A DNA stretch of 64,000 nucleotides from assembly GCA_964016885.1 (NCBI GenBank), contig OZ024746.1, positions 24,304,001-24,368,000 of the forward strand, given 5' to 3'. The translations under genes and the position numbers were made by a program. The DNA comes from Eledone cirrhosa. Lineage: Eukaryota. The notes under the pieces were generated by a model, which saw nothing but the letters and a program-made list of their open reading frames with translations, was not told where the DNA came from and searched no databases. This document shows, one piece after another, positions 30,710 to 55,730 of this stretch (position 1 is the stretch's first letter; each line of letters starts with the position of its first letter).

Positions 30710-31010
30710 CGATATTAAACAAATGGAAACTATATTTATAAAACCATATTTATTTCATTATACATATTTCAGGGATACCATATTAAAAATATGGCATGCC
30801 TTCTTCAGATAAAATACAATATATAAGCAGTTTTATAAATAAATTTGACGTACCATAAATATTGATCAACTTCCATGTGCGAAGTTGGTTTGGTAGTATC
30901 GTATATCTATTTAATATCGTATATCTACTCCAAAACTTGTTGAGTGCTTTATATCAGTTATAAAATATTTTACTTGTTGTAACCCAACAATTTTAAATAA
31001 AACTTTTGCA
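30710..31010. mobile_element. Penelope-like pseudo-LTR fragment, family H1, with inverted arrangement
   Basis: Hammerhead-bearing part on minus (30710-30855) joined to the family tail on plus (about 30910-31010); (TA)n on both sides. Confidence 0.65.
30751..30816 (-). ncRNA. Type I hammerhead ribozyme motif (family H1)
   Basis: Minus strand reads tattttat-CTGAAGA-aggcatgccatatt ttt aatatggtatccct-GAA-ATAtgTAT-A-atgaaata. Confidence 0.75.
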
Positions 31011-31235
31011 TATATATATATATATATATATATATATATATATATATATATATATATATATATATATATATATATATATATATATATATATATATATATA
31101 TATATATATATATATATATATATATATATATATATATATATATATATATATATATATATATATATATATATATATATATATGCACACGCATACAAATATG
31201 TATATATATATGTGTGTGTGTGTGTGTGTGTTTTC

Positions 31236-31445
31236 GTGAAGGTGCATGGATTAGTGATTAGAGAGGTGGATTCATAATCGTGAGGTTGTGAGCTCGATTC
31301 CCGGACTAGGTTGTTCGTTGTGTCCTTGAGTAGGACACAACGAATCGTTACTCCCGTTCAATCAGCTGTAGAAATGAGTTGTGACGTCATTGGCACCAAG
31401 CTATATCGGCCTTTGTCTTCCCTTGGGCAACACTGGTGGCGTGAA
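31236..31445 (+). mobile_element. tRNA-derived SINE family B
   Basis: gtgaaggtgcatggattagtgattag...gagctcgattcccggac...ttgtgtccttgagtaggacac. Confidence 0.75.
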
Positions 31446-31689
31446 GAGAGATGACAAGTATGCCAGTTGGTTTTTACCCGTAAAATCTGTTATAAAAACA
31501 ACGAGCTTTCTGAGTGTGCATCTACCAAATTCATTCACAAAGCATTGGTAAGCCCGAGGTTATGGCAGAAGACACTTACTCAAGGTACCATACAGTAGGA
31601 TCGAACCAGAACTGTATACTTTAGAAGCGAATTTCTAAAACCACACAGACATCCTCTGTTTTATATATATATATATATGTATATATATA

Positions 31690-32619
31690 TATATATAAAA
31701 CAGAGGATGTCTGTCTGTGTAGATCCCTAAAACTCGAGAAGTACCCGACCGATTTTTTTGAAACTTGTGCAATGGGCTAAAATTTTAACTTTTTCTTCCC
31801 TAGGACCCGCATTAGGCGAAAAACCGCATTTTAAAGGCATTTTTAGGTTTTTTTGAGGCGTAACTTAAAGATAATGCAGCCGATTTCCTCGAAATTTGCA
31901 GCACACTTTAGTTAGTCTCCTCACATTAATGGTTTCTAGGAAATTTACGAATTAGCATTGGGCATTACATGCCATTTTCATTTTCAATAGAAACGCTACT
32001 TAAACATCGTAAGTAGCGTATAATATTTCGTTAAAAATTTGCTTTATTTAACAGAGGACACAATACTTACTTTTAAGCAGGACCATTTTCGAGGGATTGA
32101 GGAAATGAAGAGGACCTAAAATTTTTGTCAGCGCCGTGTTAACGCTTCGTTCTTTCATCACGTGCAAATCCGGGCCCTGTGTACGTTGCTGTGTTATTGA
32201 CACCGTAAAACTCACGCCTGTGCTACTTCTACTAATGCCCCTTTTATTACACCTACACCGCAGTATGAACACCCTATGCAAGTATACCGAACAGCGGTTG
32301 TGCTAATTCCGCGGTGACCCCTTTTGTTGCACCTTTGTTACTGTGTAAACGCAGTGAAACCAGTGCCGCCCAGCATTTGTGCTAATTGCACTATGACCCC
32401 TTCTGCTGAGGCTGCGTTGCCACGCTGATTTCGTCATCTCAATATCCCCACTTAAACGTACATCTCTACTTGGTTTTCGCTCAATTGACCACGTCGCTCC
32501 TCAATCATTCCCTGAGAATAAGGGAATTCAAAAGTAGACAGCCACATTCCTCAATCTTTGCATATGCGTGTTGCTATTTCACGTTTCCTACCCAGTGCAA
32601 CGCCGGGTCCTGCTGCTAG
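31690..32619 (+). mobile_element. Non-autonomous Helitron related to 3147-4054
   Basis: Same 5' end (tataaaacagaggatg...ccctaaaactcgagaagtaccc) and 3' end ccc-agtgcaacgcc-ggg...CTAG|T, but a different internal sequence. Confidence 0.8.
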
Positions 32620-32657
32620 TATATATATATATATATATATATATATATATATATATA

Positions 32658-53166: not shown

Positions 53167-53879
53167 ATATATATATATATATATATATATATATATATAT
53201 ATATATATATATATACATATATATATATATATATATATATATATATATATATATATATATATATATATATATATATATATATATATATATATATATATAT
53301 ATATATATATATATATATATATACACTCACATACGTATATTCTCTTTCATTATTTTATTCATTCATTTCTAACATTCTTACACACACAACCTACATGTAA
53401 CCTCACACCCGACACTTCACACTTCACCCTCACCTACCAACAGCTCCCCACCACACACACACATGCGACGACAACACATAAACACATGCGTACACACATT
53501 TACACACCCAGACACTCACACACACACATACACGTGCGCACATATCCTCTCTCTATCTCCCTTTCTAATATTTCTCTGTCTATCACTTTCCCTTTCTAAA
53601 CCCCCTCCCTCAATCGTTCTCATCCCGTTCAAGCCCATCCCTTCTAATCATTATTTCATTATATTCCAAACTTATACAAATACACTGGCGTTGTTATGTT
53701 GAAAATGTGAAAGTATATTACGTCTTATGGGCAGGGTCAGCGCTTTCATTTAGGTTAACTAGGCCACAACCTTCGGCGCAGGCCTCACAGAGTGCATTAC
53801 TGAACTGCTACGGATCACTGTTTTATGTATATATTTGTATAAATAAATTAGATATATAAATCGACAGTTGATCGACTTT

Positions 53880-54423
53880 CGTGAAATCGAACCGAGGAAA
53901 CAATATTTCCATTAGTCTTTCCAATTGCTAACACTATCCATCGATCGCAACTCCAGGTAGAAGGAGCAACATGAAATAAAGTGTTTTGCTCAAGGACATA
54001 ACGATCGCCCGGTCCGGGAATCGAACTCACAACCTCACGATTGCGAATCCAATTATCTAACCACTGAGCCACGCGCCTTCACAAAATACATAAATAAAGG
54101 GTAAAAAAGACCCCCTTCGGGGGATTTCTCCTAGAAAGTTCCCTCTCCAAGGAATAAGTCCGGGTAACGTTGTTATTGGAAGGCCAGCAGTTGTCCATAC
54201 ATTTCAGCCTCCTCTCTCCACGTCACCGATGTTGTCAAATGCAATGGCCAATAGAGTTTGGTACTAGTGGCATCACGACTCATTTCCTCAGCTATGCCAA
54301 CTGTTGTAATGAGAAATAAAGTGTCTTGCTCAAGAACACAATACACCACCTTGTCCGGGAATTGAATTCACAACCTCACGATTGTAAGCCCAACGCTCTA
54401 ACCACTAAGCGATGCACCTTCGT
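53880..54423 (-). mobile_element. Two tandem tRNA-derived SINE family B copies
   Basis: Minus strand gtgaaggcgcgtggctcagtggttag...gagttcgattcccggac...gtccttgagcaaaacacttt; 5' ends near 54082 and 54422. Confidence 0.8.
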
Positions 54424-55091
54424 ACATACATAAAACAAATATATAATAATTTCCTGAAATCAATAAATAAATCAACCACTAAACATCTTTGCCATGTAGA
54501 AACGTTGTGGAAATATCCAAAATGGTGTAGATGGTCGTATGGTGTTATATAACCTGTTACATGATTTAATGTGTATAGCGGAAAGTTTAATACAGTTTTT
54601 CATGTAGTCAGAGCAACTGTCAAATACTAGGTTTGTCAGCTTACCAAACTATAAGTTGAAATTATTTTACTTCGGATAATGGGACGCACATTGTAGAACT
54701 AGCTTCGGGCACTAATACCCAGGCGCCTGCCTTGTATATTCCGTATTTTCTCGTGTATAATACGTTAAAATTTTTAACTAAAATCAAGGACAAAAAAGGC
54801 TGTGTATACATTTTTAGAAATTTTTTACTGATTTAAAAAATACTCATTTCAAATGTCAAGATTACAAATAGAAGTTGATAACAATTGTTTAGAAATGGTA
54901 TTTGTTATATCAGCAGTATTTGTTATTTGGGAATCAGCATAACTGAAGGACGTTTGTCTCAAGGACAGGACTTTGATAAAATAAATTAATAGTTGGACTA
55001 TGTTATTTTACATTCTTTAACGCCATATAAGCCTGAATATCGTAATCTATATCTAGATATAATATAAAAGAGAGACGTTTCTTGGTTCGTT

Positions 55092-55393
55092 GGTTTATAA
55101 ATATGAATTTTCATAAGATTTTCGTAGTTGTCTCAGTGGACTAGCGGTAGGTACTAGAAACGGTGGAGATCCTGACCTTGGGTTCAATCCTGGTCAAGTG
55201 GTACATGTAATCTTTTTCAGTTTTTATTTTACATCCCATAGAAAAAAACTGAAAACGGTTACTGGGAACCCTACACCCGACTAGGATTGAACTTCAAACC
55301 AGGATCACCACCGTCTATGATTCCTCTAACTAGGCCACCGAGACAGCTACAAAGGTATATTGAAAATTAATAATTATAAACCTACTTTCAAAA
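55092..55393. mobile_element. Fold-back repeat with two convergent tRNA-like heads, copy 2
   Basis: Homolog of 27497-27803; preceded at about 55045 by a Helitron-like start (atctatatctagatataatataaaag). Confidence 0.65.
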
Positions 55394-55665
55394 TCAAAGT
55401 TAACAGACTTGTCAATCTTCTGGCTCTTTGGTAACAACCTTATTATTCCTATCTGTGTTTAACTGTTGAATTAATTTAATTTGATTATTTTAACAAACAA
55501 ATAATACATACATACACATACATATATATATATAAAAAAAAAATATATATATATATATGCAAAAGTTCTATTTAAAATTGTTGGGATACAACAGACAGCT
55601 TCCAAAAATAATGGTCGCATCTCATAGGGTACGTCAAAATTATTTATAAAACTGTTTATATATTG

Positions 55666-55730
55666 TATTTTGTCTGATGAAGGCATACCATATTTTAATT
55701 TGGTATCCCTGAAATATGTATAATGAAATA
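55666..55730 (+). ncRNA. Type I hammerhead ribozyme motif (family H1), within element 55558-55772
   Basis: tattttgt-CTGATGA-aggcatacca tattttaatt tggtatccct-GAA-ATAtgTAT-A-atgaaata. The family tail is present inverted at 55558-55590. Confidence 0.75.

Follow-up and report, generated by a model that had tools for sequence, protein, structure and literature searches.

What are the hammerhead-like motifs that stand beside (TA)n runs in this DNA, and how did they come to be there? In the window, the whole 64-kb stretch analysed, three such ribozymes had been predicted and assigned to a short repeat. A descriptor scan of both strands returned exactly the same three, against a chance expectation of mean 0.01 and maximum 1 (100 block-wise dinucleotide shuffles): copy 1 at 30751..30816 on the minus strand (CUGA start 30808, H17 at 30759, predicted cut between 30759 and 30758); copy 2, of a different subfamily, at 52433..52497 on the plus strand (CUGA start 52441, H17 at 52489, predicted cut after 52489); and copy 3 at 55666..55730 on the plus strand (CUGA start 55674, H17 at 55722, predicted cut after 55722). 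All have the make-up of a type I hammerhead, with a CUGANGA core, GAAA, an NUH triplet and three stems of which stem I is open. The structural details of the original prediction were found in the window sequences: stem I of 8 bp, two compensatory pairs in stem II (G-C/A-U and U-A/C-G), a C.C mismatch in stem II, AUAUGUAU as originally described, AATAAA downstream, and a compatible G-U in stem II, which sits in the 30.8-kb copy. The AUA triplet and the retained C·C mismatch are among the less usual traits of the family, together with a 1.5-kb 3' UTR and readable junction signatures. AUA is a cleavable hammerhead triplet; a literature search found no published support for AUA/NUH cleavage.

The motifs proved to lie in the pseudo-LTRs (pLTRs) of an ORF-bearing element, which supports the original comparison with Penelope-type retroelement hammerheads, and those in the window are almost certainly pLTR remnants of a Hydra-clade Penelope-like retroelement. 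Natural full-length copies contain an intact 745-aa RT and GIY-YIG ORF flanked by two hammerheads, which is the linked ORF that had been proposed as a check; intact ORFs of 745 aa and 742 aa were found. The layout runs from a pLTR with its hammerhead through a 90-nt tail, the ATG (+188), the 745-aa RT/GIY-YIG ORF and a 1.5-kb 3' UTR to a second hammerhead-bearing pLTR, an optional tail and (TA)n, with a hammerhead-to-hammerhead spacing of 3834-3951 nt in six long copies. The ORF carries the motifs RWR/RSR (RSR in L104), SDKT, YRDD, CNCRNKSNC (CxCx5C) and VVY..YVG, and its endonuclease region has CDLC/CRH around E and N. Atlas feature neighbours of the ORF carried HTH_animal, GIY-YIG and RVT_1, and Pfam and PDB sequence searches returned neither an RT nor an endonuclease (GIY-YIG) match.

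Compared by eye with the parts of Craig et al. (2021; PMC8557442) drawn on here, the ORF has the motif set of the Hydra clade of C-terminal EN+ Penelope-like elements, which includes Hydra-1_Obim: a single ORF with RT and C-terminal GIY-YIG, an RWK-like motif, DKT, CxCx5C and CxxC/CxH around E and N, with no CCHH. Shared features also include a type I hammerhead near the 3' end, (TA)n targets, partial-tandem pLTRs, inverted 5' pieces and a tail at one end. Since hammerheads and (TA)n targeting were already published for the Hydra clade in that paper, the family is new and the element type known. Set against the same source, the aligned ORF motifs resemble, by eye, those of Hydra-1_Obim, whereas the N-terminus and the hammerhead differ; the element is 3.9 kb long vs 2507 bp; its triplet is AUA vs GU-H in all 26 Hydra hammerhead rows of File S2; its stem II, of about 9-10 bp with the C.C mismatch, is unlike the published ones; and it has a 1.5-kb 3' UTR and a 90-nt tail vs tails of 30-40 nt. 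A unit of 3.83-3.95 kb also departs from the 'generally shorter than 3 kb' given for Hydra elements, a descriptive rather than a defining trait.

The family is abundant: exact matches to core plus stem III number 26,586 genome-wide (reversed control, 0), and the 24 nt after the cut gave 37,874 + 622 matches, hence at least 38,000 element ends. Between subfamilies, identity of the linked ORF fragments falls to 45-65%. In the window we found no ORF remnants by tblastn, and the predicted short repeat turned out to be a fragment of the 3.9-kb Penelope-like element. Copy 1 has a main piece at 30710..30897 (minus strand), which begins at the putative transcription start (about -139, the A of ACTACC) and stops at the short 3' end (+49), and an inverted partner piece at 30911..31009 (plus strand) with the tail and the long 3' end; (TA)n runs adjoin its short end (30631..30709) and its long end (31010..31181). 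Copy 2, at 52364..52627 (plus strand), extends from about -125 to the long 3' end, including the 90-nt tail at 52538-52627, has no inverted piece, and meets a (TA)n run at its long end (52628..52718). Copy 3 has a main piece at 55593..55771 (plus strand), which begins at about -130 and likewise stops at the short 3' end (+49), a 35-nt inverted partner at 55559..55593 (minus strand) with the long 3' end, and a (TA)n run at its short end (55772..55796).

The same two kinds of end recur across the family. The 3' ends fall at two sites, +48 and +139 from the cut, and in the element an AU run comes after each of them. Of 318 alignment ends, 99 belong to the short peak and 98 to the long one. Beyond 93 of 95 long ends and 114 of 126 short ends lies a TA run of 8 nt or more, compared with a background of 10.5%, in agreement with the predicted TA-repeat targeting. 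Inverted insertions pair one long with one short end in 38 of 40 cases (p 7e-10), one of the two 'short-short' exceptions (L014) being a misread long end; in a further set this pairing was seen by eye in 9/9. The two arms differ by at most 2 nt in 38 of 58 pairs, indicating mostly a single source, and match different subfamilies in two of the 58 (L061, L137). In the open-licence literature, nothing relevant was found on twin priming, microhomology, cap or extra-G signatures in Penelope elements.

At the 5' side, junctions pile up at -137 (62 vs 2 at -142), and an extra G precedes 36 of the 62, where about 15% would be expected and where position -126 gives 1/27; this suggests a copied mRNA cap. 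The signal was weaker in a second subfamily, with G at 26 of 66 junctions and, where a TA run adjoins the junction, at only 3 of some 16 (read by eye in the first 100 of 367 rows, no matched control for these counts), and many of the Gs could have been templated by the inverted partner instead. The -137 site does not end most copies: 392 of 462 continue upstream of it. Of 18 upstream pLTRs, 11 extend beyond -145 and none stops within -145..-120, which we read as longer-than-unit copying.

We consider it likely that the hammerhead-bearing pLTR remnants of this Hydra-clade element were left by internally primed reverse transcription that reached the capped 5' end of the RNA. An initiator-like TCA(+1)CT in the pLTR would launch a capped transcript; the endonuclease would nick a (TA)n run on its two strands, each of which would then prime reverse transcription from one AU run of the pair. 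Where cDNA synthesis began near the RNA 5' end, it would halt at the cap, yielding solo pieces of 160-280 nt like the window copies. Read from junctions in genomic copies, this combination of two-site priming and cap run-off is somewhat favoured. Poseidon PAc of Anolis, in the parts of Frangieh et al. (2024; PMC11167929) drawn on here, similarly has a tail defined by two internal RT start sites, cutting of both strands, an unprocessed RNA substrate and a protein-assisted hammerhead. Its start sites are described there as having no target homology and no strand difference, unlike the AU-run start sites of the present family, which match the (TA)n target and are used one per end in 38/40 insertions.

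For the hammerhead itself, the structure appears conserved as predicted. When stem II was anchored on the core, 388 of 427 cells were paired vs 40-48% after sliding; double-sided changes occur across subfamilies at 10 of 19 pairs, a number reached by 0/500 shuffles, with 6/8 pairs so changed in stem II and 4/8 in stem I while stem III is invariant in the same alignment (statistics that ignore kinship); and in a set chosen without regard to the core, 33 of 34 rows have an unbroken CUGANGA. Folding is less favourable. The monomer MFE fold is not the hammerhead, only stem II being stable by itself (z = -2.3, -1.6 and -0.95 for the three copies); stem III can close in the monomer at a cost of about 2.9 kcal/mol, and in a dimer its 8-nt duplex yields a weak -2.2 kcal/mol. 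An Rfam hammerhead match, another proposed check, was absent both from the whole window (E<=1) and from the 121 nt surrounding the third copy (E<=10); such a match is a library criterion and not a biochemical one. Rfam miRNA matches in the window were rejected as TA-repeat noise.

Under our reading, the hammerhead would be a weak, conditional ribozyme, dependent either on pairing of its palindromic stem III with a second copy or on assistance from the element's protein. Its most probable job would be to cut both pLTRs of one transcript, releasing a 3.9-kb monomer that ligation could close into a circle, open to copying beyond a single turn; this role in circle formation we put forward tentatively. 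More speculative, and on balance doubtful, is the view that the copies record a full Penelope cycle, in which a dimeric RT-endonuclease base-pair-primes both TA strands at two fixed AU runs, one per strand, with capped linear RNA giving cap-terminated solo hammerheads and a 3.9-kb circle, made by the hammerhead via paired palindromic stems, giving longer-than-unit copies that rebuild the pLTR; such a complete cycle has so far been demonstrated for no element. Speaking against the preferred reading of remnants left by internal priming and cap run-off are the weak monomer fold and dimer helix, a first stem II pair other than G-C, the lack of an Rfam match to the motif and of Pfam or PDB matches to the ORF, the weaker cap-G signal in a second subfamily, the missing junction pile-up at the cut and the anole Poseidon element, whose hammerhead mutants transpose normally in vitro and whose RT starts lack target homology (PMC11167929, in the part drawn on here).

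Junctions at the ribozyme cut are indeed few, about 20 among the first 100 of 622 non-A rows vs 37,874 with A. To judge from the genomic junctions, the RNA being copied had likely either stayed uncut or been re-ligated at the hammerhead site, and the genome shows no direct sign of cleavage. An alternative that fits uncut templates is that, in the same element, the hammerhead serves mainly as an RNA-pairing or protein-binding structure whose palindromic stem III joins two templates in a dimeric RNP, cutting being rare or irrelevant. Both stem III variants of the family remain self-complementary, the arms of L061 and L137 would come from two templates, and the Poseidon protein is a predicted dimer whose hammerhead mutants still insert (PMC11167929). 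However, the family has retained the catalytic core and a non-G H17, exceeding the needs of pairing alone, most arm pairs are single-source, and Naiads, as portrayed in the excerpted parts of PMC8557442, form inverted, tailed copies without canonical hammerheads; we regard this alternative as unlikely.

Less probable still is that the short copies, common among those examined, make up a non-autonomous family akin to SINEs or retrozymes, with transcription starting from solo pLTRs and mobilisation in trans. A tailed solo pLTR does contain the putative start and both priming sites, but the short copies of subfamily A are near-identical to the pLTR of ORF-bearing copies, and the 392 copies continuing beyond -137 argue against it. 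Among the loci examined, same-strand spacings were scattered or about 3.9 kb, with no regular short tandem arrays and with a linked ORF, contrary to a retrozyme or short autonomous repeat. Animal non-LTR retrozymes share the type I hammerhead and AT-richness and are thought PLE-dependent or PLE-derived, but as depicted in the parts of PMC7229834 and bioRxiv 10.64898/2026.07.22.740005 drawn on here they are tandem arrays of 150-450-bp monomers without an ORF, unlike the dispersed, truncated or inverted copies here, which come from an ORF-bearing element. We think it slightly more improbable again that the hammerhead, located in the 5' leader, acts as an off-switch by decapping, either limiting expression or converting mRNA to template: it does lie between the putative start and the ATG (137 nt from the cap and 188 nt from the ATG), yet a cut RNA serving as template predicts +1 junctions, which are scarce. 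A chance look-alike in AT-rich DNA, spread only by element copying, would suit the poor monomer fold and the Rfam result but is very improbable given double changes in 10 pairs across subfamilies with such divergent ORF fragments, and a position and form that agree with published Hydra elements.

As a ribozyme or as an element type, the find is ordinary. Craig et al. (PMC8557442, in the part drawn on here) name as open questions the role of the hammerhead in endonuclease-bearing Penelope elements and the origin of tails, inversions and microsatellite bias. With its intact natural ORFs, its copies in the tens of thousands and the exact coordinates predicted for start, cut and priming, the family makes these questions testable using one element. 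With the minimal PLE hammerheads of Cervera and de la Pena (2014; PMC4209133, in the part drawn on here), for which a circle model was proposed, it shares type I motifs in pLTRs, a palindromic 15.2-16.2 region and a predominance of single truncated copies, and opposite-strand pairs 100-700 bp apart. It differs in having at least 26,586 core-intact copies vs the 2,000-9,000 quoted there, and in pair 10.1-11.1, the first of stem II, which is A-U or G-U here vs a G-C called highly conserved there.

A catalytically dead G17 subfamily was considered and rejected: G17 was seen in about one in four of the first 100 among the 622 non-A rows, or roughly 0.4% of copies, a level consistent with decay, and in a few inverted pairs the two arms have the same G at position 17.

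Sequence inspection bore out the original prediction of three hammerhead motifs in the window (copy 1, 30751-30816, minus strand; copy 2, 52433-52497, plus strand; copy 3, 55666-55730, plus strand), and when both strands were scanned with a hammerhead descriptor, it matched only these three (mean of 0.01 in 100 shuffles). Rfam reported no hammerhead in the window. Folding alone yielded stem II only; stem III was computed to be unfavourable in the monomer (~2.9 kcal/mol), and the predicted duplex of its self-complementary 8-mer was -2.2. The hammerhead feature is real, and the family that carries it is new but belongs to a known kind; the guess at a self-cleaving-type retroelement was right as to type and overrated its novelty.

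Using copy 3 as query against the 3.0-Gb genome, we obtained 1,102 first-look candidates, and full-length matches among the 40 that were scored were 99% identical. Longer copies, when traced upstream, led to an ORF with RT/GIY-YIG-type motifs on the same strand as the hammerhead. With the 5' part of the ORF as query and 20 of 40 listed places fetched, intact ATG-to-stop ORFs were found in two copies, L104 (745 aa) and L105 (742 aa; 89% identical), most other fetched ORF-region copies being 5'-truncated or broken. L104 consists of a pseudo-LTR (pLTR) with hammerhead, a tail, the ATG (+188 from the predicted cut), the ORF, a 1.5-kb 3' UTR, a second pLTR, a tail and (TA)n, with 3,951 nt between its two predicted cuts; copies 1-3 aligned to the pLTR and tail only, and a search of the window for an ORF remnant found none. 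The ORF protein, which was not recognised in Pfam and PDB searches, carries RWR, SDKT, YRDD, CxCx5C, a GIY-YIG-type motif pair and CxxC/CxH, and its Atlas feature neighbours (0.96-0.98) carry HTH_animal, GIY-YIG and RVT_1. Since this motif set matches the features by which the Hydra clade of Penelope-like elements was defined (RWK-like, DKT, CxCx5C, CxxC/CxH; PMC8557442), we assign the element to that clade. Hydra-1_Obim, the sole octopus Hydra family in the supplement of that paper, differs from the present family in sequence and hammerhead. The 2026 Octopus vulgaris repeat annotation counts Penelope families, its main text naming neither Hydra nor hammerheads (PMC13282606); an entry for the present family, under whatever name, may already exist in the library of that annotation or in Repbase.

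The motif is abundant: the pattern core-N(22-38)-TGAAATATGTATA had 26,586 exact matches genome-wide (reversed control, 0), the variant with AUAUAUAU had 12,502, and the 24 nt downstream of the cut had 37,874 with A at position 17 plus 622 with non-A. Sampling 60 loci from 100 listed places (20 for diversity, 40 by position order) gave 73 motifs, 61 of them distinct. In controls that count related copies as independent, seven stem II positions, set by distance from the core, paired in 388 of 427 cells (slid control, 40-48%); arm swapping among 10 repeated stem II types averaged 59 and never exceeded 66, versus 67/70 observed; and in 20 representatives chosen by hand, of which 19 were distinct, 96.4% of cells paired and both sides changed in 10 of 19 pairs, matched by 0/500 shuffles. 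Position 4 was paired in 0/73 motifs, with C.C in 67. RNAalifold recovered stem II only, with 7/9 pairs covarying, and CUGANGA was present in 33 of 34 rows of a set retrieved with a pattern lacking it (some rows being repeated, overlapping loci). One divergent stem II type occurs together with ORF fragments that share 45-65% identity with L104, so the fold is common to several related families. Two loci, L125 and L141, represent a second family, which differs in stem II and whose endonuclease region shares 45-65% identity with L104; the 3' UTR of L125 is ~1.6 kb, and a long 3' UTR seems to be shared by both families. More distant hammerhead families (L126:5607-5675; L127:5608-5681, partly duplicated in tandem; L131:5385-5671; L038 near 8291) have the same stem III, a GC-rich 4-bp stem I and, at position 4 of stem II, a pyrimidine mismatch, and also end in TA runs; no ORF was found for them.

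Two peaks accounted for 99 and 98 of 318 alignment ends, a short 3' end at +48 (followed by TATAT in the element) and a long one at +139 (followed by ATATAT); 45 ends continued into the ORF. Of the long ends, 93/95 were followed by a TA run of 8 nt or more, as were 114/126 short ends, compared with 10.5% of random places. Contiguous inverted insertions combined one long and one short end in 38/40 cases (expected 49.9%; p 7e-10), as did 9/9 of a further set judged by eye; window copies 1 and 3 obey the same rule. Penelope-like copies often carry the tail at one end only (PMC8557442). In vitro, two internal RT starts define the tail of Poseidon and are reported to lack target homology (PMC11167929), whereas both end sites here adjoin AU runs, with which a nicked target may pair to prime RT. 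Arms of one insertion differed by at most 2 nt in 38/58 pairs versus 25/300 random pairs, so they usually come from one source; L061 and L137 join arms from two subfamilies, pointing to two templates at least sometimes, or later recombination.

At the 5' side, element pieces often stop at -137 to -121 (partly query-biased). In subfamily A, the base before ACTATCC at -137 was the element's C in 392 copies and non-C in 70, of which 8 were discarded by eye as point mutants; the 62 remaining junctions were preceded by G (36), T (19) or A (7), with G expected at ~15% (p 2e-14). Control site -142 gave 6 rows (2 junctions) and -126 gave 27 (1 with G; 14 of one fold-back type). An extra G stood at 5/9 TA-run junctions. 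The signal was weaker in a second subfamily: of the first 100 of 367 rows, 34 were left out as read-through variants, and G stood before 26/66 junctions and only 3 of ~16 TA-run junctions. An additional G can arise when a reverse transcriptase copies the cap, and, by comparison with the initiator consensus, we read -137 as an initiator-like site where transcription probably starts, with the cap copied. Drosophila Penelope has an internal promoter within its pLTR (PMC2377424). Window copies 1-3 all start within ~12 nt of the -137 site, copy 1 exactly there. Subfamily A has GGTCG at +28 to +32 from the putative start (window ~55613-55617), which we take to fit the DPE consensus and its canonical spacing; other subfamilies have the site displaced by one base or in degenerate form.

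No junction pile-up was found at the ribozyme cut: ~20 of the first 100 of the 622 non-A rows were junctions (~0.3% of copies), and the first 100 rows with A possibly conceal 1-3 more. Several inverted pairs have G at position 17 in both arms, predicted to be non-cleavable, indicating that such RNAs are copied at least occasionally. The ORF start is present in 23 copies. In 18 of them, pLTR or tail sequence lies upstream: 11 of these pieces reach past -145, none ends between -145 and -120, and 7 fall short of -120. Full-length copies therefore did not arise by simple run-off from a capped RNA of unit length. They would be accounted for equally by a circle, by a template jump or by a longer read-through RNA.

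In the mechanism that we propose, a capped transcript would begin at -137, both target strands would prime RT by pairing, the copied templates would be uncut or re-ligated, and conditional cleavage of both pLTRs in one transcript would lead to circularisation. The ribozyme's role is the part of which we are least sure. Against cleavage and circularisation we count the lack of a direct genomic trace of cleavage, the weak predicted folding and the report that the Poseidon hammerhead is dispensable in vitro (PMC11167929). We favour this role, proposed earlier for Penelope-like elements (PMC4209133), over a hammerhead serving as an RNA-pairing structure only or as a decapping switch, and over short copies being solo-pLTR SINEs. 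The value of the element lies in exact predictions that are open to testing.

Directly 3' of copy 3 lies a near-perfect 81-nt hairpin (55794-55874), followed by disrupted reading frames (55947-56690) that match a Pif1 2B domain (E 1e-9), together presumably a decayed Helitron-type helicase element. The window also holds a 42-bp unit repeated in tandem over 14.3 kb (37556-51899; 345 copies, 94% matches), long TGG-rich arrays with periods in multiples of 3 (13999-17510 and 58385-60268), whose minus strand could code for Thr/Pro-rich repeats of low complexity, and a SINE-like 195-bp unit three times in tandem (26007-26610), with an inverted copy near 37100.
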